Assembly (NCBI GenBank): GCA_022709735.1 | Contig: JAKLIG010000002.1 | Coordinates: 130,028-194,027, forward strand | Length of the DNA stretch: 64,000 bases | Origin: Patescibacteria group bacterium | GTDB lineage: Bacteria > Patescibacteriota > Minisyncoccia > Moranbacterales > UBA2206 | Direction of reading: 5' to 3' | Shown here: piece by piece, positions 4,906 through 59,859 of the stretch | Layout of the letters: every line of letters begins with the position of its first letter | How positions within the stretch are numbered: the stretch's first letter is position 1 | Notes under the pieces: generated by a model | The model's input: the letters and a program-made list of their open reading frames with translations, nothing else | The model's database searches: none | Told to the model about the DNA's origin: nothing | Translations under genes and position numbers: made by a program

Positions 4906-5840
4906 TGGTGAATAATAATATTTATGATTTAATAATTATTGGTGCAGGACCAGCGGGACTCTCGGCTTCGATTTATGCTTCGCGCTACGCGATAAAACAT
5001 CTTATTGTCGGCACGGTTTTGGGTGGGCAAATTACCGAGACACATAAAATTGACAACTATCCCGGCATGGAAGATATGAGTGGTTTTGAGTTTGGACAAC
5101 TTTGGGGGAAGCATGCAAAAAAATATGGCGTGGAAATTATTCCATCTTTAGTTCAAGAAATTGAAAAAGAAAATAATATTTTCAGTTTAACTTTAGCGGA
5201 CAAAAACATCTTAAAAGCGCGGACTATTCTTTTAGCCACTGGCACGAAAAAAAGAGAATTAAATATTCTTGGAGAAAAAGAATTTCTTGGCAAAGGTGTT
5301 TCTTATTGCGCCACTTGTGATGGATTTTTTTATAAAAATAAAAATGTCGGCGTAATTGGTGGATCAGATAGCGCCGTTACTTCCGCGTTATACTTGGCTG
5401 ATTTAGCCCAGAAAGTTTTTTTAATTTATCGAAAAAGTGAACTTCGCGCCGAACCGTTTTGGGTGGAGCTGGTTAAGAAAAATAATAAAATTGAAGTAAT
5501 CTATGATACAAATGTTATAGAGATAATGGGCAAAGAAAAATTAGAAAAAGTAAAATTAGATAAAAGTTATAATAATTCAGATGAGTTAAATTTAAACGGA
5601 CTTTTTATTGAAGCCGGATCAGAACCAAGTGTAGATTATATTGAAAATTTAGGCGTTGAAACAGATGAAGGCGGATACATAAAAATCCAAAAAAACGGCG
5701 CGACGAATATTCCGGGAATTTTTTCGGCTGGCGATATTACCGACGGTTCTGACAAATTTAGGCAAGTCATTACCGCTGCTTCCGAAGGGGCAATTTCTGC
5801 CAGAGGAATTTATAATTGGCTTCGAAAAGAAGGGAAATGA
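4887..5840 (+). CDS. trxB: thioredoxin-disulfide reductase
   Basis: FAD motif IIGAGPAGLSASIYA; redox-active CATCDG; NADPH site GGSDSAVTSALYL. The true start is probably the second ATG at 4905 (MVNNNIYDLIII...), because the first 18 nt belong to the upstream repeat. Confidence 0.85.
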   Translation: MEFEFNMVNNNIYDLIIIGAGPAGLSASIYASRYAIKHLIVGTVLGGQITETHKIDNYPGMEDMSGFEFGQLWGKHAKKYGVEIIPSLVQEIEKENNIFSLTLADKNILKARTILLATGTKKRELNILGEKEFLGKGVSYCATCDGFFYKNKNVGVIGGSDSAVTSALYLADLAQKVFLIYRKSELRAEPFWVELVKKNNKIEVIYDTNVIEIMGKEKLEKVKLDKSYNNSDELNLNGLFIEAGSEPSVDYIENLGVETDEGGYIKIQKNGATNIPGIFSAGDITDGSDKFRQVITAASEGAISARGIYNWLRKEGK

Positions 5841-43321: not shown

Positions 43322-45082
43322 ATGAAAAAAAGAAAAGTTTTAATTTTTATCGCGGTTATCTTTATTCTTTTTTTTGGAATTTTTAGAGCAACAAAATTAG
43401 GCACAAGTAACAAAAAAGTTTATTTTGAAACGGCTTCTCATGCGGAGGCCGTTTCTTTGATTGTCCCGCACCATTTAGTGGCGGAAGAATTAATTGACGA
43501 AGCTTTTGCTTTGACGGCGCAAAAAAATAAAGCCGTCAAAATTGACAGAGCTATTCTTATTAGTCCAAACCATTTTAATTTGGGGCATGGCTGGGTGAAT
43601 CTAAGTGACGAAAATTGGGAGACAAAAAATGGGAAAATTGAAGTGGATGTGCTAGGTCTGGAAAAAATAAAAAATATTGAAGGGTTAAATGTTGAAAATG
43701 AAGCTTTTCAAAAAGAGCATGGGGTTGAAAATATTATGCCATTTATTGCCAGATATTTTCCTGAAACTAAAGTCATTCCACTTATGGTAAAAGACGGCTT
43801 TCCCCTAGAAAAATCAGAAAAATTAGCGGATGATTTAGCGAAAAATTTTCCTCAAAACACGCTGATTATTTTGTCATCCGATTTTTCTCATGAATTGGAA
43901 AAAAATATGGCCAAGTTTCATAATCAAAAAACTATTGAAGTAATTAGGAATAAAGAATATAAGAAGATTGGAAATTTAGATACTGATTGTGCGCCGGGGC
44001 TTGTGATTTCGACAAAATATGCGCAAAATTTGGGGTATGAAAATTTTGAATTGTTTGGAGATTCCAACTCCTCGGAAATTTATGGCAAGAATTTTATCGG
44101 GGAAACAACGAGCTATATCACGGGAATTTTTTCGGAAGGGAAACAAATAAATCAAATCAAGGCAGTGCAACTGATGTTTTTTGGCGATTGGATGCTAGAC
44201 AGAAACAATCGAATGCTATCTGAAAAAAACAGTGCTCCATGGCTAAGTGAAAAATTGCGCCGGATTTTTTGGAGCCAGGATGAAAATATTTTGAATTTAG
44301 AAGGAACGATAACAGACAAGCCTTCGGTTTCGGTCGGGACTAATGAAACTCAAAAGGGTCATTTTCTGTTTACTTTTTCACCGGAAAAAACCAAAACTTT
44401 TTTGGCAGAGAATAAAATTGGCCTAGTAAGTCTTGGCAATAACCATAGCTTGAATTTTGGGCCAGATGGACTGGTAGAGACGAAAAATAATCTCAAAAAT
44501 TTTGGCGTTGAATATTTTGGTGATCCTACGAATGAAAATAATTTTTTGATTAAAGATATCAATGGGCAAAAAATCGGCTTTGTGAATTATAATCAATTTT
44601 TTGGTCCGGATGAAGAAAAAACTGTTGAGAATATAAAAGAGACAAAAAAGCGCTCGGAGTTTGTAGTAGTTTATACTCATTGGGGGACCGAGTATCAATT
44701 ATCAGAAAATGAAAAACAAAAAAAGTTAGCGCATCAATTTATCGATAGTGGGGCGGATTTGATTATCGGGTCGCATCCGCATGTAGTGGAGCCAATTGAA
44801 ATTTATCAAAACAAAGCGATTTTTTATTCGCTGGGAAATTTTATTTTTGACCAATATTTCAGCGAAGATGTGAAAACTCGGCTAGCGGTGGCGGTTTCAA
44901 TTTCAAAAGAAAAAACAGAATTTGTTCTAGAACCACTTTATACCCAAAAAAACGGGCAAGTGATCTTGGCGGAGGAAATAAAAAGAAATGAATTACTAGA
45001 TAGAATAGCAGAGAACAGCACAGTTTCTAGCGAAATTAAAGAAGGCCTGAAATCAGGACATTTTCAGATAAAAAATAATTAG
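43322..45082 (+). CDS. fusion protein: N-terminal Memo1/AmmeMemoRadiSam-B-like domain + C-terminal CapA/PgsA-type metallophosphatase (poly-gamma-glutamate capsule family)
   Basis: N-terminal ...VPHHLVAEELIDEAF...ILISPNHF; C-terminal LMFFGDWMLDR...VSLGNNHSLNFGPDGL...VVYTHWGTEYQ...GADLIIGSHPHVVEP...SLGNFIFDQ (CapA motifs). Confidence 0.6.
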   Translation: MKKRKVLIFIAVIFILFFGIFRATKLGTSNKKVYFETASHAEAVSLIVPHHLVAEELIDEAFALTAQKNKAVKIDRAILISPNHFNLGHGWVNLSDENWETKNGKIEVDVLGLEKIKNIEGLNVENEAFQKEHGVENIMPFIARYFPETKVIPLMVKDGFPLEKSEKLADDLAKNFPQNTLIILSSDFSHELEKNMAKFHNQKTIEVIRNKEYKKIGNLDTDCAPGLVISTKYAQNLGYENFELFGDSNSSEIYGKNFIGETTSYITGIFSEGKQINQIKAVQLMFFGDWMLDRNNRMLSEKNSAPWLSEKLRRIFWSQDENILNLEGTITDKPSVSVGTNETQKGHFLFTFSPEKTKTFLAENKIGLVSLGNNHSLNFGPDGLVETKNNLKNFGVEYFGDPTNENNFLIKDINGQKIGFVNYNQFFGPDEEKTVENIKETKKRSEFVVVYTHWGTEYQLSENEKQKKLAHQFIDSGADLIIGSHPHVVEPIEIYQNKAIFYSLGNFIFDQYFSEDVKTRLAVAVSISKEKTEFVLEPLYTQKNGQVILAEEIKRNELLDRIAENSTVSSEIKEGLKSGHFQIKNN

Positions 45083-53459: not shown

Positions 53460-55256
53460 ATGAATACAGATGTCGAAGAAATAAAATCTAGGCTCAATAT
53501 TGTTGATGTTTTGGGCGAATATATCCGACTAGATAAGGCAGGAGCGAACTGGCGGGCTCTCTGCCCTTTTCATAATGAAAAATCGCCCTCTTTTATGGCA
53601 AGTGAAGAAAAACAAATCTGGCATTGTTTTGGTTGCCAGAAGGGGGGAGACATTTTTGGTTTTGTGATGGAAATGGAAGGCTTGGAGTTTCGCGAAGCAT
53701 TGAAAATTCTCGCGGAAAAAGCTGGAGTAAAATTGCAATCATACAGTCCGGAAAAAACAGAAGAAAAAAGCAGAACCTTGGAAATTTTGGAACTTGCTAC
53801 CAAGTTTTATGAAGTGCAACTTTGGAAAGGTGAAGGCAAGGAGAAAATTCTTAAATATTTACATGATCGGGGATTGAAAGACGAAACAATCAAAGAATTT
53901 CGCTTAGGCTATGCGCCGAACGGCTGGCGAAATATGCTAACTTTTTTGACTGGCAGAGGCTTCAAAGTAGAAGAAATAATTAAAACGGGTCTTTTAGTGA
54001 AAAAAGAAAATTCAGGAGATTTCTATGACCGGTTCCGTGATCGGATAATGTTTCCAATCGCAGATTATTCGGGAAAAATTTTAGGCTATAGCGCTCGAGT
54101 GGCGCCAGGTGGAGATGAATCACAGGCAAAATATGTAAATACTCCCGAAACAGAAGTTTATCATAAAAGCCGAGTGCTTTATGGCATAGATAAGGCTCGA
54201 AGTGAAATGAAACAAAAAGACAGCGTCCTTCTTGTCGAAGGCAATATGGATGTGATTGCCTCGCATCAAGCGTGGATAAAAAATACCGTAGCAGTTTCTG
54301 GAACGGCGCTCACGCAAGAACAGATTGGAACAATAAAAAGATATACTAAAAATATTCAAATGTTTTTTGATATGGACAGCGCCGGAGAACAAGCGACAAA
54401 AAAGAGTGTCAAATTATGCCTGGCAAGTGATATGTCAGTAAAAATTGTAAGTTTGGCGCAAGGCAAGGATGCGGCCGATATGGCCAAAGACAATCCGGAA
54501 GAACTTCGAAAAAATGTCGCCGAAGCTTTGCCAGCAATGGAATATTTTTTCCAGAAAACTTTTCAAAAATTTGATAAAAACAAAATTGAAGACAAGAAAA
54601 AAATAACCGAAGAACTTTTGGCGCTAATTTCTAGTTTGGAAAATGAAGTGGAAAAAAATTATTGGATAAAAAAACTGGGAGAAGGGCTGAATATAGCAGA
54701 GTCAGCATTGACGGATGAGTTTAAAAAGATTAGTCTTAAGAGTAAGATTAGAATAAGTGAAAAATCTGAAAATATTCCCGAAAAAAATATTCCTTTAGCG
54801 AAAAAAGAAATGTTAACGCGCGAGCTGATTGGGCTGATGCTTACGAGCAGTTTTGCTTGGAAAAAAGCGGCGGAAGAAGCGCGTGAGGGCAAATTTGATT
54901 TAGAGGATAATCTTTTTAGTTTGATGATTGAAAAAGGAGAAAAGGCAGATTTTGATTTTTCTGTCTTTATGGGTGAAATAGCAGAAAATCGGGAACTTAG
55001 TGAAAAAGCGGAAAAGATTTTTTCCCAGAAGAAATACCGCCTTGATCTTAATAATAATTTAGAAGAAATAGTTGTTGAAGAACCACTCAAAGATTTTCAA
55101 TTGTATGCCAATGAACTTCTAAAAGAGAATAAAAAAGAAGAGCTTAACCGCATAAGCAATGATCTTAGGGTTGCGGAAGAAAGGAAAGACAAAAACGCGG
55201 TAATGTTTCTGCGCCAGGAATTTGATCGAATTTCCAAAGAACTTGCAAAACTATAA
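53460..55256 (+). CDS. dnaG: DNA primase
   Basis: CHC2 zinc finger CPFHNEKSPSF...WHCFGCQKGGD; Toprim LVEGNMDVIA. Confidence 0.9.
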   Translation: MNTDVEEIKSRLNIVDVLGEYIRLDKAGANWRALCPFHNEKSPSFMASEEKQIWHCFGCQKGGDIFGFVMEMEGLEFREALKILAEKAGVKLQSYSPEKTEEKSRTLEILELATKFYEVQLWKGEGKEKILKYLHDRGLKDETIKEFRLGYAPNGWRNMLTFLTGRGFKVEEIIKTGLLVKKENSGDFYDRFRDRIMFPIADYSGKILGYSARVAPGGDESQAKYVNTPETEVYHKSRVLYGIDKARSEMKQKDSVLLVEGNMDVIASHQAWIKNTVAVSGTALTQEQIGTIKRYTKNIQMFFDMDSAGEQATKKSVKLCLASDMSVKIVSLAQGKDAADMAKDNPEELRKNVAEALPAMEYFFQKTFQKFDKNKIEDKKKITEELLALISSLENEVEKNYWIKKLGEGLNIAESALTDEFKKISLKSKIRISEKSENIPEKNIPLAKKEMLTRELIGLMLTSSFAWKKAAEEAREGKFDLEDNLFSLMIEKGEKADFDFSVFMGEIAENRELSEKAEKIFSQKKYRLDLNNNLEEIVVEEPLKDFQLYANELLKENKKEELNRISNDLRVAEERKDKNAVMFLRQEFDRISKELAKL

Positions 55257-55282: not shown

Positions 55283-56596
55283 ATGGCTAAAGCCAAGAAA
55301 AAAAAGAAAAAAATTTCTAAGAAAAAACCTGCTTCCAAAAAACTCAGAAAAAAAGCATCCGTTCGAAGAAAGAAAATCGCTAAGAAAAAAACTAAACTCA
55401 AGCGCAAGGTCAAAAAAGTTTTTCGCAAAAAAAAGCGCGAAGAGAAGAAAGTAAAAAAGATTTCAAAATCGACGGAAGAAAAAAACGCTAAAAGGCGCGA
55501 TGATATTGACGAGTTAGTTTATCGTGGGAAACAGAGAGGTTTTATCACGGAAGACGAAATTTTGCATGCTATTCCGGACGCGGAAAGAGAAATTGAAAAA
55601 TTAGAAGAACTTTATGAAAAGTTGGAAAAGAAAAGTATCCGGGTGATCAATTCTGATGAGATGATACGAATGGAAACGGACAAAATTTCTGAAAATCTGG
55701 ACAAGCAAAAATCCAGCAAGAGAAAAGCAAAAAAAGATACGCTGGATGTTGGCGCTTCCGAGGAAGCTTCCTCGGATCTTGTGCAAATGTATCTTCGGGA
55801 AATCGGCCGAGTAGATCTTTTGAGCACTGAAGAAGAAATATCTTTGGCAAAAAGAATTGAAAAGGGAGATCTTATGGCCAAGCAAAGACTCACTGAAGCC
55901 AACCTTCGCTTAGTAGTGAGTATCGCCAAAAAATATGTTGGAAGATCACACAATCTTTCTCTTTTGGATTTGATCCAGGAAGGAAATATCGGGCTTTTTC
56001 GGGCGGTCGAAAAATTTGATTATCGAAAGGGGTATAAATTTTCTACTTATGCGACTTGGTGGATTCGTCAAGCAGTGACAAGAGCGCTGGCTGATCAATC
56101 TCGAACAATTCGCATTCCAGTGCATATGGTGGAGACAATTAATAAGTATACGCAGGTAACAAGGAGGCTCGTGCAAGATCTTGGAAGAGAACCACTACCA
56201 GAAGAAATCGCAGTGGAAATGGGAATCGAGGTGGATAAAATTCGCCACATTCAAAAAATTTCTCAAGAGACAGTATCGCTGGAAACTTCTGTCGGTGACA
56301 GCGATGATGACAGCGTACTTGGAGATTTTATCGAAGATACAGAAACAGTAATGCCAAATCAAATCGCTTCGAGAAAAATGCTCAAGGAACATGTAGCGGA
56401 AATTCTAAAAGATCTTACCCCAAGAGAACAAAAAATTCTAAAAATTCGTTTCGGCTTGGAAGACGGCGTGACACATACTTTGGAAGAAGTGGGGCAGGAA
56501 TTTGGCGTAACGAGGGAAAGAATTCGGCAGATTGAAGCCAAAGCGCTGGAAAAAATTCGTGATCATGGGACGATCAAAAAGCTTAGAGATTACTAA
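55283..56596 (+). CDS. rpoD: RNA polymerase sigma-70 factor RpoD with a Lys-rich N-terminal extension
   Basis: Region 2 [40 protein letters not shown]; region 4 ...[14 protein letters not shown]... Confidence 0.95.
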
Positions 56597-56620
56597 AAAG
56601 ATATCCACATATCCGCATTT

Positions 56621-56646
56621 GACAAAAAATGTAGGTATGCTAAATT
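56621..56646 (+). promoter_or_regulatory. sigma70-like promoter TTGACA-16-TAAATT driving leader ORF 1 (transcript essentially leaderless)
   Basis: ttgaca(56621-56626) aaaaatgtaggtatgc taaatt(56641-56646); ATG at 56656. Confidence 0.5.
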
Positions 56647-56655
56647 AGCCTTGTT

Positions 56656-56754
56656 ATGAAGAACATGCAAACTAAATTTTATTTTATATTGTCTTTGATT
56701 ATTATTCTGGTCCTCAAGACCGGTCTTGGTTTGCATGAAATGAAAAAGGCATAA
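56656..56754 (+). CDS. 32-codon leader peptide, Ile/Leu/Val-rich (MKNMQTKFYFILSLIIILVLKTGLGLHEMKKA)
   Basis: Frame conserved with the paralog at 57575; three consecutive ATT Ile codons plus Leu/Val codons sit just 5' of the region-1/2 stems. Confidence 0.5.
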   Translation: MKNMQTKFYFILSLIIILVLKTGLGLHEMKKA

Positions 56755-56810
56755 AAGTAAATCCATTTCAAATAAACCAAGGCCGATCTCGTAAAAAGGA
56801 TCGGTTTTTT
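56714..56810 (+). promoter_or_regulatory. transcription attenuator: palindrome 1:2 (CAAGACC/GGTCTTG), antiterminator 2:3 (56718-56732 with 56774-56788, 14/15 bp), terminator 3:4 (CCGATC 56783-56788 / GATCGG 56799-56804 + TTTTTT)
   Basis: Mutually exclusive pairings read directly from the sequence; a U-run follows the terminator. Confidence 0.55.
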
Positions 56811-56826
56811 AGTTCTTTGAGAAAAA

Positions 56827-56881
56827 TTTGATAGCTAAAATAGGGTTTTAATAAATTTAAATCTTTATTTTGGCTATCAAA
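56827..56881. repeat. 15-bp inverted repeat TTTGATAGCTAAAAT ... ATTTTGGCTATCAAA (one G-U) with a 25-nt spacer, between the attenuator and the next SD
   Basis: Read directly. Confidence 0.5.
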
Positions 56882-56907
56882 TAAAACAATTTTAAAGGAA
56901 GGTAATT

Positions 56908-57099
56908 ATGATAATAAATATATTAGATGAAAAAGTAGGTGCGCCAGCTGGAGAATATGATGTATGGGGAGAAGATCAAACAGAAACATTATTATTTCTT
57001 AAACCTAAATCAAAAAAAAGTTGCAGAGAAACCTTATTGTATATAAATAAAATTAATCTGCAATCATTAAAGGATAGAGGAATGATAAAAGTTGACTAG
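56908..57099 (+). CDS. small hypothetical protein (63 aa)
   Basis: Strong SD aaggaagg 5 nt before ATG; no known family. Confidence 0.45.
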   Translation: MIINILDEKVGAPAGEYDVWGEDQTETLLFLKPKSKKSCRETLLYINKINLQSLKDRGMIKVD

Positions 57100-57157
57100 A
57101 AGAGTGTGTGGAGGTATAGCATAAACAAGAAAAGAAAAATAAAAAGGAGAGGCGAAA

Positions 57158-57361
57158 ATGAAGCAAAAGACAGTAGGTGCAGATGAGGATAGCACCCCCG
57201 GGATTAAAAGATCAAAAAACCTGGTGTCTCTTTTTGGCAAAAGAGTGATTCCAGGGGTAAGAGTTATTGGCATAGCAGGGCTCGGAAACGAGGAATCTGA
57301 CGAAAATAATGCAGGAGTGGCAAACTTATCGCCACCTCCTGGCAGAGAACCTTTCTTCTAA
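57158..57361 (+). CDS. small hypothetical protein (67 aa), Gly/acidic-rich C-terminus ending PPPGREPFF
   Basis: Strong SD aaaaggagagg; no known family. Confidence 0.45.
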   Translation: MKQKTVGADEDSTPGIKRSKNLVSLFGKRVIPGVRVIGIAGLGNEESDENNAGVANLSPPPGREPFF

Positions 57362-57528
57362 AAAATGAGAGAAAATCCTCTCGAAAAATTTTGGCAGGGC
57401 CTCGATGTCTACAAGACATTCTATGTCTGATGGGGCTTAACCATAAGCTCCAGTGCCAAAAAAACAAGGGGAAAGGTGACACAATCACTTTTTCCCTTGC
57501 ATCTAAAATCAAATTAAATTTTTATATA

Positions 57529-57556
57529 TTGACAGAATCTCAGCAGATGATAAACT
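57529..57556 (+). promoter_or_regulatory. sigma70-like promoter TTGACA-16-TAAACT driving leader ORF 2
   Basis: ttgaca(57529-57534) gaatctcagcagatga taaact(57551-57556). Confidence 0.5.
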
Positions 57557-57574
57557 GATAAAGTAAAAAAAGAA

Positions 57575-57673
57575 ATGTCAAAACAAACCAGCCAAAAATT
57601 TTATAGCTTTAATTACTTTTATTTCTGGTTTAGCCAGATCGGTTTTGTTTTGCATAAAATGAAAAAAATATAA
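57575..57673 (+). CDS. 32-codon leader peptide, Phe/Tyr/Trp-rich (MSKQTSQKFYSFNYFYFWFSQIGFVLHKMKKI)
   Basis: Same length, same C-terminal motif (LH.MKK.*) and same position relative to the stems as leader 1; 6 Phe + 3 Tyr + 1 Trp codons clustered before the stems. Confidence 0.5.
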   Translation: MSKQTSQKFYSFNYFYFWFSQIGFVLHKMKKI

Positions 57674-57727
57674 GACATTATTCATTTTAGATAAACCAAA
57701 GCCGATCTCACGCGAGACCGGTTTTTT
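57624..57727 (+). promoter_or_regulatory. transcription attenuator, paralog of 56714-56810: 1:2 TCTGG/CCAGA, antiterminator 57635-57651 with 57693-57709, terminator CCGATCTC-acgc-GAGACCGG + TTTTTT (57702-57727)
   Basis: Antiterminator 3' strand overlaps the terminator 5' arm; a compensatory C-G to U-A change relative to copy 1. Confidence 0.55.
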
Positions 57728-57812
57728 AGTTCTTTAAAACAATACACCAAAATTTTAAAATATTTGTTTAAATTACAAAAACACAACAAATAAAAGAAAG
57801 AAAGGAGTACAG

Positions 57813-58709
57813 ATGAGCACACTAATTGAATTTCAAGGATGGAGATTTACTACTTCAAATGTAACGGAAATTTTTTCGAAAGAAGCAGAGGGGCAAGCAA
57901 TCAGTGAGCTAAATAACTGGAAAGGCAATTTTCCGGTTGAAGAAACATGGGTGCAAAGGACTCTTGGTATTCCATCTCTGATTGTTCGCCTAGATTGCGT
58001 TGTTAAAAACGGGAAATTATTAATCTTTGAGATTGAAGAACGTCCCGCTGGAATTGGCGTAACGACCATATTAAATCCAGTTTTTTCCAAAAAATTCAAC
58101 AATTTAAGGAATGGCTGGCCAGAAATTAAATCAGTAGTAACAAAAGAGAGAAGTTCATGCGACGATTATTTATGGACGGAGTGCATCCCTATTGAAGTAG
58201 CTGAAAAAGATGATTGCTTGCTTCTCGTTCGTGCTGAACCGGAAGAAACGCAATTTCATAAATTTGTTTCTCGCTCTGTTAGCACGGTAATTACCAAGGG
58301 CGATAAACAATATGGCAAAGAAATGGGGTTGTGGGAAGAGGTGTCAATAACCGATTTTTATCGATTGCCATGGGATTCTGGATTTTGCTTGAAGCCTCTT
58401 AAGGGCTCAAAATGCAGAAATGTTGAAATCTGGCATCCTATTTTTGCGAAAAAGAAGAGTGGCATAGGTGGCATATCAACAAAATCCCGAATCCAGAAAG
58501 TCTTGGGATCCTATGGCAAGATGTATCTGCAAAAATTTATCGAACCCATGGAAAAACCTGGTGACAAATCCCTAATGATGGCCTATCGAGTTTTTTTTGG
58601 TTATGATTTATCAATCAAAGAGTATAGATATTTAGGTGGCGCTTGGAATGCCAGAGCAAATATTAAAATTCACGGAACACCGGATACTATAATGGGTGCT
58701 GTGAACTGA
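57813..58709 (+). CDS. hypothetical protein (298 aa), no recognised family
   Basis: SD aaaggag; immediately downstream of the aromatic-leader attenuator. Confidence 0.5.
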   Translation: MSTLIEFQGWRFTTSNVTEIFSKEAEGQAISELNNWKGNFPVEETWVQRTLGIPSLIVRLDCVVKNGKLLIFEIEERPAGIGVTTILNPVFSKKFNNLRNGWPEIKSVVTKERSSCDDYLWTECIPIEVAEKDDCLLLVRAEPEETQFHKFVSRSVSTVITKGDKQYGKEMGLWEEVSITDFYRLPWDSGFCLKPLKGSKCRNVEIWHPIFAKKKSGIGGISTKSRIQKVLGSYGKMYLQKFIEPMEKPGDKSLMMAYRVFFGYDLSIKEYRYLGGAWNARANIKIHGTPDTIMGAVN

Positions 58710-58782
58710 TTGGTGTATAATTGCTAGGAGGTGGCTCAAGCCACTTCCTAGCACAATCTAAAAATTTAATTTTAAAATAGCA

Positions 58783-59859
58783 ATGGACAATATAGCTAAA
58801 TTAGCATCAGAATTGATTAAGTTTAAATCAATTAAGGAAAATATTTCAGAAAGAAAAAGAATAGTTTCATTTGTAAAAACACAATTTAAAAATGTTCCTG
58901 TTTTTATAAAGGAATTTGATAAAAATAATAATCCTTCGATAATTATAACTTTAAAAAAAGAAAAATGCCCAAAGATTTTTTTAATTGGGCATCTTGATGT
59001 AGTCCTTGCTAATGATTCACAATTTCAATCTAAGATTAAAGATAAAAAATTGTTCGGAAGAGGCGCGGGTGATATGAAATTAGCAGATGCAGTTATGATA
59101 GAAGTAGTAAAATATTTTGCAAAAAAGAAAAGAAAACTTTCTCTGGGATTGATGTTAACTACTGATGAAGAAACAGGTGGATTTAATGGTGTGAATTTTT
59201 TATTAAATAATAAAAAATATTCTTCAAAGTTGGCGATTATACCTGATGGAGGACCAAATTTAAAAAATATTATAGTAAATCAAAAGGGTGTATTACATCT
59301 AAAGCTAAAATCTTTTGGGATATCAGCACATGCCTCTAGGCCTTTTTTGGGACAAAATGCCATAGATGATTTATATTTAAAATATTTAAAAATTAGAAAA
59401 ATTATTCCATTTACTGAGAAAAATGAATGGAAAGATACCATGAGTCTGGGAAAATTTTATGGCGGGGAAGCAATAAATAAAGTGCCTGATTATGCAGAAA
59501 TGTTTATAGATATAAGATATATAAAGGATAATGGGAAGAAAATAATTTTAAAAAAAATAAGCAACATTGTTAATTGGGAACTTATTTCTCATGGAAAGTC
59601 TCTTGTTCAGAGTACGAAGAATATTTATTTAAAAGAATTTAAAAAATTGTTAAAAAGCGAAACAGGCGATGAAGTTTTTTTCAGCAAGGTTGAGGGCTCT
59701 TCTGACGCAAGATTTTTTTCCGAAAATAAAATTCCTGTTATTATAACAAGAATAAATTGTGGCAATATACATGGTGAAAATGAATGGGGCGATTTGGAAG
59801 AAGCTAATATTTTTCAAGATGTTTTAAAAAAATTTATAAATAAAATTTGTGATCATTAA
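58783..59859 (+). CDS. M20-family metallopeptidase (ArgE/DapE/dipeptidase-like)
   Basis: IFLIGHLDVV...GRGAGDMK...LTTDEETGG metal-binding and catalytic motifs of the M20 family. Confidence 0.7.
   Translation: MDNIAKLASELIKFKSIKENISERKRIVSFVKTQFKNVPVFIKEFDKNNNPSIIITLKKEKCPKIFLIGHLDVVLANDSQFQSKIKDKKLFGRGAGDMKLADAVMIEVVKYFAKKKRKLSLGLMLTTDEETGGFNGVNFLLNNKKYSSKLAIIPDGGPNLKNIIVNQKGVLHLKLKSFGISAHASRPFLGQNAIDDLYLKYLKIRKIIPFTEKNEWKDTMSLGKFYGGEAINKVPDYAEMFIDIRYIKDNGKKIILKKISNIVNWELISHGKSLVQSTKNIYLKEFKKLLKSETGDEVFFSKVEGSSDARFFSENKIPVIITRINCGNIHGENEWGDLEEANIFQDVLKKFINKICDH

Follow-up and report, generated by a model that had tools for sequence, protein, structure and literature searches.

We analyzed a window of 64,000 nucleotides (nt) from a member of Candidatus Moranbacteria (Patescibacteria). 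In this window, the dnaG-rpoD operon is followed by a candidate attenuator, which we will call c1, that begins 22 nt past the stop codon of rpoD. There is no other terminator between rpoD and c1, so c1 must terminate the rpoD transcripts too. The element (like c2 and the downstream genes described below, it is on the forward strand) starts with a promoter at 56619..56646, which comprises a -35 box of TTGACA (56619-24), a 16-nt spacer, and an extended -10 box (TGcTAAATT, 56638-46). This promoter has 10 of 12 consensus matches as well as the TG motif. A preliminary description of this sequence had the spacer and the end of the -10 box right but placed the start of the -35 box at 56621, two nt too late.

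The promoter is followed by a short leader ORF of 32 codons, with an ATG start codon at 56656 and its end at 56754 (MKNMQTKFYFILSLIIILVLKTGLGLHEMKKA), just as had been described. The ORF lacks a Shine-Dalgarno sequence, and its ATG is only 9 nt past the -10 box, so the leader mRNA is probably leaderless or nearly so. We infer leaderless initiation solely from the promoter geometry, and the transcription start is a prediction as well. Across 30 distinct elements of this type (see below), a near-consensus promoter ends exactly 6 or 9 nt upstream of the ATG in about 20, which accounts for the absence of the Shine-Dalgarno sequence.

Codons 14 to 20 of the leader (56695..56715; L14 I15 I16 I17 L18 V19 L20, or TTG ATT ATT ATT CTG GTC CTC) all encode isoleucine, leucine, or valine, and include the run from ATT ATT ATT to CTC (56698-56715) that the preliminary description had pointed out. 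Codons for isoleucine, leucine, and phenylalanine are abundant in AT-rich genomes anyway. Among the short ORFs of the window, 4-mers that are entirely Ile/Leu/Val occur at 0.56% of positions (and 4-mers that are entirely Phe/Tyr/Trp at 0.06%). The best 8-residue stretch of the c1 leader has 7 of 8 Ile/Leu/Val, which is matched by only 3 of the window's 247 short ORFs.

The RNA of c1 can form several alternative helices. Hairpin 1:2 (56707..56723) is formed by CUGGUC (56707-12), a loop of CUCAA, and GACCGG (56718-23), with a folding energy of -7.4 kcal/mol. The preliminary description had instead paired CAAGACC with GGTCTTG (56715-56728), but these segments together make up an uninterrupted palindrome, without room for a loop, so that hairpin is sterically impossible. 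Hairpin 1:2 is followed by a U-rich tract (UCUUGGUUUG), and together they are a candidate pause hairpin; we found the equivalent small hairpin and U-rich tract in 13 of the 13 elements that we examined. Region 1 (56707-13) has region 4 as an alternative partner. Region 2 (56718-32) pairs at 14 of 15 positions with region 3 (56774-88) to form the antiterminator (56716..56790), whose inner hairpin (UGAAAUG at 56736-42 with CAUUUCA at 56764-70) surrounds the stop codon of the leader (56752-54). Region 3 can also pair with region 4 to form an intrinsic terminator (56781..56810; GGCCGAUCU, a loop of 8 nt, and GGAUCGGUU). The terminator's core is CCGAUC (56783-88) and GAUCGG (56799-804), with 10 nt between them, and then U6 at 56805-10; a conserved motif, AGTTCTTT, lies directly after it. 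The 2:3 pairing and the terminator (56783-56810) had both been noticed earlier, and we confirmed them.

Because region 3 pairs with either region 2 or region 4, helices 2:3 and 3:4 are mutually exclusive. Helix 2:3 (with its inner hairpin) is competitive with 3:4, at -28.5 versus -11.2 kcal/mol, which supports the original reading of the locus as an attenuator. Relative to 1:2 and 3:4 summed, helix 2:3 is favored by about 9-10 kcal/mol, so default termination would rest on a predicted closure by 1:4 or on kinetics. The predicted fold without a ribosome is not 1:2 plus 3:4, but a single long hairpin (1:4 and 2:3) against the U-run. The minimum free energy of c1 has a z-score of -3.7, and 0 of 200 shuffled sequences folded equally well.

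The genes downstream of c1 (56908..57361) encode two small orphan proteins, ORF-A (56908-57099, 63 amino acids) and ORF-B (57158-57361, 67 amino acids), each with a strong Shine-Dalgarno sequence. In one related locus (L001), they are fused into a single ORF of 141 amino acids. ORF-A and ORF-B have only three close homologs and no match in Pfam or NCBIfam. By profile search, we obtained a few small relatives as well as weak matches inside PKD-repeat proteins, and an AlphaFold2 (AF2) model (pLDDT 72) gave no significant fold match. Thus, searches by family, homolog, profile, and fold detected no tie to branched-chain amino acids. The transcription unit is closed by a G+C-rich hairpin (57465..57499). 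The sequence of this hairpin varies, but it is in the same place in all relatives, and in L005 it is a canonical terminator, T-run included.

Just past this hairpin, and about 900 bases from c1, is a paralogous element of identical architecture, c2 (57529..57727). It has a promoter (57529-56), a leader ORF of 32 codons that is rich in Phe/Tyr/Trp (57575-57673, MSKQTSQKFYSFNYFYFWFSQIGFVLHKMKKI), a hairpin 1:2 (57624-38), a region 3 (57693-57709), and a terminator (57702-21) with a U-run (57722-27). In this genome, the operon that c2 would control (57813..59859) encodes an ATP-grasp ligase-like protein (57813-58709) and an M20 peptidase (58783-59859). The ATP-grasp protein has 298 amino acids and an AF2 model with a pLDDT of 94; its leading Foldseek matches are YjfC and glutathionylspermidine synthetase (E about 1e-7). 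This gene pair is kept in 7 of the 7 homologous Patescibacteria loci that we fetched.

In relatives, c2-type leaders are followed by the gene for prephenate dehydratase, and this is so in two separate genomic contexts. Several relatives also have TyrA/chorismate mutase and/or an aminotransferase further downstream. So, in these relatives, the genes after the leader serve the synthesis or supply of the amino acids that it would sense. A tblastn search found neither prephenate dehydratase nor TyrA in the window. Another aromatic leader (L096) is followed by an ORF of 270 amino acids that matches no family and has no relationship to the 298-amino-acid protein.

The element's conserved motifs occur at just two places in the window, c1 and c2, versus 0.02 expected by chance, and we found no further copies within the 64,000 nt. 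A weak match to the covariance model at 43368-43459 lies inside an ORF of 586 amino acids, and we dismissed it as a third copy. An Rfam scan with gathering thresholds found two tRNAs only; no leader family reached its threshold. In a permissive cmscan, the Phe_leader model matched the c1 region (56668-56814) at 20 bits, compared to a gathering threshold of 55 bits, and with E = 1.9, which is noise. No leader family matched c2 in this permissive search, and the other matches (miRNA models) were noise.

Both copies are present after rpoD in all of the close relatives that we fetched (L001-L007, L090, L098, and L100-L102), whose RpoD proteins are 89-93% identical where measured. Among the matches listed in an RpoD-based genome scan, most of which are from distant phyla, the few Moranbacteria with RpoD identities of 75-86% lack the element after rpoD, so the synteny with rpoD is confined to a subclade. 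The same tandem module is also found outside of the rpoD context in two loci (L103 and L104) that we reached via homologs of the 298-amino-acid protein (52-53% identity). There, an Ile/Leu/Val-rich leader, small ORFs, one or more Phe/Tyr/Trp-rich leaders, and the ATP-grasp and M20 genes occur in that order, with largely different nucleotide sequences. Examples of leaders include MKNIFVKTYSVIIILLVVLLGQ..., MKILEQVKTILLSILLVLISR..., ...SFYFWFS..., and ...FYFYFWFFFF.... Elements of the c2 type are found away from rpoD in L089-L097 as well. The leader of L099 carries the run AAT-AAT-AAT and may represent a further codon class. (Our covariance model, R1, missed the distant elements, which we identified by protein synteny.)

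Altogether, we recovered at least 25 distinct homologous instances from metagenomes and relatives. The leader ORF is intact in all c1-type homologs, with 31-33 codons, and across all homologs the leader has 29-35 codons, with the frame and the codon class kept. In other words, it is not just the stems that are kept in the homologous loci: the leader ORF persists with its length, frame, and codon class, despite the divergence in nucleotide sequence, as the original attenuation reading would lead one to expect. In helix 2:3 and the inner helix, 94.6% of cells are paired and six pairs show double changes; the covariation score of helix 2:3 was reached by 0 of 500 shuffles. In c1 from L005, regions 1/2/3/4 have all changed coherently, to CUGAUU/GAUCAG/CUGGUC/GAUCAG. 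For the terminator (3:4), an alignment of 17 sequences has 86% of its cells paired, with weak covariation because the terminator's sequence varies little.

Given the location of c1 just after rpoD, with nothing else to terminate that operon, we considered whether c1 might be simply the terminator of dnaG-rpoD plus the promoter of the next gene, with the ORF and the alternative pairing arising by chance. But the promoter is upstream of the terminator instead of downstream, the module is also found away from rpoD (L103, L104, and for the c2 type, L089-L097), and both the ORF and helix 2:3 are conserved, the latter with covariation. We consider this explanation to be extremely improbable.

Another explanation is that the leader encodes a small hydrophobic protein with a function of its own (for example, as a type I toxin or membrane peptide), and that the hairpins are mRNA structure and a terminator. 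With 32 residues that run from a polar N-terminus through a hydrophobic core to a basic C-terminus, the peptide does resemble many small membrane proteins. However, the hydrophobic stretch is broken by a charged residue whose sign flips among relatives (K21 or E21, with both E and K in L005), and the cores of c2 leaders contain Ser, Asn, or Gln. Residues at the N-terminus change freely within a constant composition class. Regions 1 and 2 and the inner hairpin encode the peptide's C-terminal half, whose conservation can thus be attributed to the RNA. The leader peptide has no match in Pfam or NCBIfam. Nor did we find a convincing antisense promoter: the minus-strand sites have 9 of 12 consensus matches, which is near the level in shuffled sequences. 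In short, the leader lacks an uninterrupted, conserved segment of transmembrane length, the antisense promoter-like sites that we found are weak, and a role for the leader as a functional protein seems very unlikely.

The preliminary description had suggested folding the RNA with the ribosome's footprint masked. We masked the footprint codon by codon and refolded the downstream RNA, using partition functions (at equilibrium only). In this model, the terminator forms if there is no ribosome, or if the ribosome is either early in the leader or at the stop codon. It disappears only if the A-site is on codons 14-19 or so of c1 (L14-V19, or LIIILV), which masks region 1 and leaves region 2 free. 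The probability that region 4 is paired drops from 0.97-0.99 to 0.24-0.45, and only in the core of this readthrough window; at other A-sites, the terminator or the 1:4 helix has a probability of 0.8-0.99. The result is stable for footprint offsets of 9-15 nt.

Modeling of the relatives gave similar results. The minimum of the terminator's probability is about 0.3 for c1 from our window, as compared to about 0.03 for L001. The readthrough windows of the c1-type leaders are IIIL (our c1), IILL (L001), and LIE(L) (L005, where L-I-E-L is less pure). For c2, the predicted window lies on the codons for F15-Y16-F17-W18, and the window of c2-type elements is FYFW even if the ORF is three codons longer or the window is two codons earlier. 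The exception is c2 from L005, whose probability never falls below 0.33. Elements that were outside of the design of this analysis have predicted windows of YFW, YYFWF, FYFWFF, and SILLV, as well as a broad one that contains VIIILLVVLL. In silico, a ribosome stalled at the regulatory codons would favor the antiterminator, and a ribosome that is absent or at the stop codon would lead to termination.

These results also bear on whether c1 is a stand-alone gene for a small RNA of about 150 nt that acts in trans, with its own promoter and terminator and with an incidental ORF. The promoter and the terminator are both strong, the long hairpin is stable (z-scores of -3.7 and -5.2), and c1 and c2 share complementary segments. 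In Sinorhizobium, an attenuator-derived RNA is reported to act in trans (PMC6614838). On the other hand, the length, frame, and codon class of the ORF are kept in at least 25 distinct instances and in distant, nucleotide-divergent elements; codons of this class lie in the readthrough window that the structure predicts; and the element is always directly upstream of same-strand genes that bear Shine-Dalgarno sequences. A small RNA gene with no role for the ORF therefore seems quite unlikely, but the RNA may have a role in trans alongside attenuation.

From the sequence features, the conservation of the ORF and its codon class, the covariation of the stems, and the mutual exclusivity of the helices, we infer that c1 is a ribosome-mediated (leader-peptide) transcription attenuator of the trp/phe/leu/ilv class. 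We put the probability of this at roughly 77%. We propose that the strong promoter would start transcription at the AUG of the 32-codon leader, or 1-3 nt upstream of it, and that RNA polymerase probably pauses at hairpin 1:2 and the U-rich tract until a ribosome arrives. The outcome would then depend on how far the ribosome has come by the time that region 4 and the U-run are transcribed. If the ribosome is absent or still early in the leader, the long hairpin (1:4 stacked on 2:3) would end at the U-run and transcription would stop. If the ribosome has reached the stop codon, which is in the apical part of helix 2:3, then region 2 would be melted, with the ribosome sitting between regions 2 and 3, so that 3:4 would pair and transcription would stop again. 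But if the ribosome is stalled with its A-site on codon 14 to 19 or so (Leu-Ile-Ile-Ile-Leu-Val), region 1 would be covered and region 2 would be free. Helix 2:3 would form, region 4 would lack a partner, and transcription would continue into ORF-A and ORF-B. So, c1 would report a shortage of charged tRNA-Ile or tRNA-Leu (and possibly tRNA-Val as well), and c2 would do likewise with its Phe/Tyr/Trp codons. The preliminary description had proposed that charged tRNAs for Ile/Leu/Val gate the downstream genes of c1. The position of the modeled window, on Ile/Leu/Val codons, is consistent with this, but the genes themselves encode orphan small proteins and are not ilv or leu genes.

Alternatively, c1 might be an attenuator that depends on translation but has no specificity for Ile/Leu/Val, and that instead responds to overall translation capacity or ribosome availability, or to arrest by a hydrophobic nascent peptide. 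The architecture by itself is silent as to what slows the ribosome. Furthermore, the readthrough window of c1 mixes three amino acids (and that of L005 includes Glu), and the downstream genes are not ilv/leu. However, the paralogous class always has Phe/Tyr/Trp codons in the window and is linked to prephenate dehydratase and TyrA. Also, what is kept across distant lineages of c1-type leaders is the codon class and not the peptide (IIIL, IILL, SILLV, VIIILLVV). We think that a non-specific signal is unlikely.

In Escherichia coli, the ilvL leader has 32 codons as well, and both ilvGMEDA and ilvBN are controlled by leader-peptide attenuators with mixed Ile/Leu/Val codons. c1 resembles these systems in having a short Ile/Leu/Val-rich ORF, an overlapping antiterminator and terminator, a U-run, and a predicted choice of fold by the ribosome's position. 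However, c1 has no sequence similarity to them and matches no Rfam leader family; its leader is probably leaderless; its stop codon is in the apical part of the antiterminator instead of upstream of region 2; its predicted state without a ribosome is a single long hairpin of 1:4 and 2:3; and it would regulate orphan small ORFs rather than ilv genes. Several actinobacterial leader ORFs are leaderless. Like the attenuators and upstream ORFs described from Actinobacteria (PMC1262725; for ilvB of Corynebacterium, PMC10272879), our elements lie outside of the Proteobacteria and have short ORFs with regulatory codons and probably no 5' UTR. They differ in phylum and in the regulated genes, and we see no sequence relationship. 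The c2-type elements are similar to the pheA leader (pheL) of Gammaproteobacteria (Rfam RF01859; PMC3082878) in that prephenate dehydratase is preceded (in relatives) by a short leader with consecutive aromatic codons. However, c2 mixes Phe, Tyr, and Trp (FYFW) where pheL has a pure Phe run, and in this genome c2 would control an ATP-grasp ligase and an M20 peptidase.

Leader-peptide attenuation itself is a textbook mechanism, and it appears to be present in this little-studied group. Organisms of the Candidate Phyla Radiation (CPR) cannot be grown alone and, to our knowledge, their gene regulation is almost unstudied. The preliminary description knew of no attenuation in such organisms, and likewise, among the papers that we searched, we found no report that ties CPR/Patescibacteria to leader-peptide attenuation. 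If attenuation operates here, then the coupling of transcription to translation, and control by tRNA charging, work in minimal cells. The elements also form a model-ready family of cis-regulatory sequences, with at least 30 instances collected.

More speculatively, leaderless three-state attenuators might be a general sensor of amino acid supply in Patescibacteria, whose cells are largely auxotrophic and host-dependent, and might act on lineage-specific genes instead of classical biosynthetic ones. This is an idea that we would not yet bet on. If it is correct, then the Ile/Leu type controls ORF-A and ORF-B, the Phe/Tyr/Trp type controls the ATP-grasp and M20 genes, and the codon content of a leader would be a functional label for CPR genes that cannot otherwise be annotated. 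Hypothetical genes would thereby gain testable ties to amino acids: the ATP-grasp ligase and the M20 peptidase to the supply of aromatic amino acids, and the orphan small proteins to isoleucine and leucine.

The putative attenuator c1 starts 22 nt 3' of the dnaG-rpoD pair (53460-55256 and 55283-56596). The preliminary description had proposed that a promoter and a leader peptide rich in Ile, Leu, and Val precede RNA segments (regions 1-4) that pair alternatively, with 2:3 as the antiterminator and 3:4 as the terminator. The promoter is present, but its -35 box TTGACA (56619-56624) begins 2 bases earlier than was described; after a 16-nt spacer, the extended -10 TGcTAAATT ends at 56646. The 32-codon leader ORF (MKNMQTKFYFILSLIIILVLKTGLGLHEMKKA; ATG at 56656, stop ending at 56754), region 2 (56718-56732), region 3 (56774-56788), the terminator CCGATC/GATCGG (56783-56788 and 56799-56804), and the T6 run (56805-56810) are all where they had been placed. 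The upstream (1:2) hairpin is different. CAAGACC/GGTCTTG, which had been proposed for this role, is ruled out: the two halves of this palindrome are contiguous and leave no loop on which to fold. The actual hairpin is CUGGUC-CUCAA-GACCGG (56707-56712 and 56718-56723; -7.4 kcal/mol), and a U-rich tract follows it. Except for this pairing and the 2-nt shift, the observation is confirmed.

The c1 transcript folds much better than shuffled sequences (z = -3.7). The predicted state of the free RNA is a long hairpin (-37.5 kcal/mol for the whole 1-to-4 structure), with the base of 1:4 abutting the U-run. A concern was that 2:3 might not compete with 3:4. By the calculated energies, the antiterminator (2:3 with its inner hairpin, -28.5 kcal/mol) is predicted to be more than competitive with the terminator (-11.2 kcal/mol).

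Refolding with the ribosome's footprint masked, which the preliminary description had suggested, also gave the expected result. For each codon, we deleted the RNA to 12 nt beyond the first base of the A site and then calculated how likely the six bases immediately 5' of the U-run were to be paired. This probability is 0.97 with no ribosome, 0.97-0.98 with codons 1-13 in the A site, and 0.99 once the A site has reached codon 20, through to the stop. It drops solely near L14-V19: codons 15-18 (I I I L) give 0.31, 0.30, 0.45, and 0.64. If the footprint offset is varied from 9 to 15 nt, this readthrough window shifts only inside L14-V19.

About 900 nt 3' of c1 lies a paralogue, c2 (57529-57727), with the same architecture: the same type of promoter, a 32-codon ORF, the helices, and a U-run followed by AGTTCTTT. 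Its leader peptide (MSKQTSQKFYSFNYFYFWFSQIGFVLHKMKKI) is rich in Phe, Tyr, and Trp instead of Ile, Leu, and Val. It is followed by a 298-aa ORF resembling ATP-grasp ligases and an M20 peptidase (57813-59859). In a scan of the window against Rfam, neither c1 nor c2 matched any family, and they are not members of any of the Rfam leader families.

The window's RpoD has a 100% identical match in a Candidatus Moranbacteria MAG, which places the genome in the CPR/Patescibacteria. Every locus whose RpoD is 89-93% identical to the window's (L001-L007) carries both c1 and c2. In these relatives, rpoD and c1 are followed by one or two small ORFs with Shine-Dalgarno sequences, a G+C-rich hairpin, and c2. 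Beyond c2 there is a small ORF, then prephenate dehydratase, and in several of the relatives also TyrA/chorismate mutase and/or an aminotransferase. Scanning metagenome contigs with a degenerate DNA pattern gave 15 further loci, and pooling these with the relatives' loci gave 25 distinct instances. The c1-type peptides fit MKNMQTK[I/L/F][S/Y]FILS[V/L]II[L/I]LV[F/L].TGLGL[R/H]EMKKA (L005 has MKTFESKTFLVGFLIELIAKISLGFRKMEKA), and every c2-type peptide has an aromatic block (e.g., FYSFSYFYFWF, FYSFYFFSFWF, or LFNVFYFWFTF). At L095 and L097, the c2 type is in an entirely different neighborhood, again about 450-550 nt 5' of prephenate dehydratase. L099 (contig Ga0172380_10000027, 1463-1616, minus strand) is a variant of the same RNA architecture in which the ORF (MHSIYQTTKRVNNNMSGITTGRLWFLRNED) has 30 codons and uses a different frame; an AAT-AAT-AAT run is near the modeled readthrough window. 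This variant may represent a further amino-acid class.

Across 17 distinct sequences, the 2:3 helix and inner hairpin are 94.6% paired, and both sides changed at 6 pairs; the covariation score was higher than in any shuffle. When the 2:3 partners were slid out of register, pairing fell to 30-54%. The 3:4 terminator is 86% paired, with little variation. In c1 of L005, regions 1/2/3/4 are coherently altered (CUGAUU/GAUCAG/CUGGUC/GAUCAG, versus CUGGUC/GACCGG/CCGAUC/GAUCGG in the window).

The readthrough window of c1 is I I L L in L001 (minimum 0.03) and L I E (L) in L005. The c2-type elements each have F Y F W, even when the ORF is 3 codons longer (L096) or the window is 2 codons earlier (L089); the exception is c2 of L005, with a weak drop (minimum 0.33). 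Elements found later by synteny have Y F W, Y Y F W F, F Y F W F F, and S I L L V, and c1 of L103 has a broad readthrough window containing V I I I L L V V L L. As background, four consecutive ILV residues occur at 0.56% of positions in the window's short ORFs, and four consecutive FYW residues at 0.06%. That the codons and the modeled structure coincide again and again in independent lineages argues most strongly for a regulatory role of the codons.

More distant instances came from the 298-aa protein. It has no Pfam domain; it was confidently modeled as an ATP-grasp ligase (pLDDT 94), with YjfC and glutathionylspermidine synthetase as the best PDB matches. The source names on record for its family are all Patescibacteria/CPR. 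At every locus that we fetched, the M20 peptidase comes after the homologue (39-53% identity). Two of these loci, L103 and L104, are away from rpoD and have the complete tandem module 5' of the homologue: an ILV-rich leader (MKNIFVKTYSVIIILLVVLLGQGGQFVFAGNKY or MKILEQVKTILLSILLVLISRIGFDLCEF), small ORFs, and then one or two aromatic leaders (MINNIAKTLYTSFYFWFSPRG..., MKNTLQGQFSFYYFWFFKK..., MQIIFQNFYFYFWFFFFGR...). Aromatic (or Met plus aromatic) leaders are also found in L106, L107, and L109; we found no such leader 5' of the homologues in L105 or L108. Two aromatic attenuators stand in tandem before the ATP-grasp/M20 operon in L104 (2523-2662 and 2817-2945) and also in L106 and L107 (about 2570-2945). 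Because the M20 pairing is constant and aromatic leaders are often upstream, we suggest that the 298-aa protein takes part in handling aromatic amino acids or peptides. The L103 and L104 modules are largely unlike the window's in nucleotide sequence, so conservation applies to the fold and to the ORF with its length and amino-acid class, rather than to stems that outlast the reading frame and codon bias.

The leaders lack Shine-Dalgarno sequences, while neighboring genes carry AAGGAG. The distance from the end of a near-consensus promoter (10-11 of 12) to the ATG is exactly 6 or 9 nt in about 20 of 30 distinct elements, which puts the likely start site at the ATG's own A or 1-3 nt upstream. 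Given this position, the leaders are probably translated leaderless.

Downstream of c1 are ORF-A (56908-57099), ORF-B (57158-57361), and a G+C-rich hairpin that closes the unit (57465-57499), where L005 has a canonical terminator. ORF-A and ORF-B evolve quickly: they are one fused ORF in L001, and unrelated small ORFs replace them in L103 and L104. They matched no family or fold; there are just three close homologues, and weak similarity to part of PKD repeats.

We also noticed several other features. An (A)GTTCYTT motif is directly 3' of the U-run in nearly all attenuators (56811-56818 and 57728-57735 in the window), including the distant ones in L103, L104, L106, L107, and L109. Between the c1 terminator and the Shine-Dalgarno of ORF-A is a long AT-rich hairpin (TTTGATAGCTAAAATAGGG...CTTTATTTTGGCTATCAAA, 56825-56883); L001 has a hairpin of unlike sequence at the equivalent place (about 5634-5690). 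A small structured element in the 3' region of ORF-B (57392-57455) has a conserved loop (TTAACCATA) and a stem with covariation in L001 and L004 (GGACTTAACCATAGTCC). The loop of L100 is a variant (TCAAACATA); the element is absent from L007, L098, and L091 and has no Rfam match. At its N-terminus, the window's RpoD is extended by a Lys-rich segment of about 60-75 residues (55283-55510), which is also present, with variable sequence, in the relatives examined.

Folding, conservation in homologues, and the ribosome-mask model all support the proposed attenuator. c1 has all of the defining structural features, the regulatory logic appears in the folding model, and for c2, prephenate dehydratase and TyrA in relatives link the amino acids that it would sense to metabolism. 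We put the probability that c1 is a translation-coupled attenuator at about 0.8; that it specifically senses Ile/Leu (and possibly Val) is somewhat less certain, but we favor it. Functionally, sequence and modeling point to classical ribosome-mediated attenuation of the ilvL or pheL type. The design departs from the classical one: translation of the leader is probably leaderless, its stop codon falls within the apical portion of the antiterminator, the predicted state with no ribosome is a 1:4 plus 2:3 super-hairpin, c2 would sense mixed FYFW codons, and the presumed targets appear not to be biosynthetic. PMC3082878, PMC1262725, PMC10272879, and PMC1183508 document attenuation in Proteobacteria and Actinobacteria, among others. 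Our literature search found no paper joining the CPR or Patescibacteria with leader-peptide attenuation, so the phylum may be new for it; the mechanism itself is textbook. c1 and c2 open regulation in the CPR to study, and they would label orphan CPR genes by amino-acid signal.
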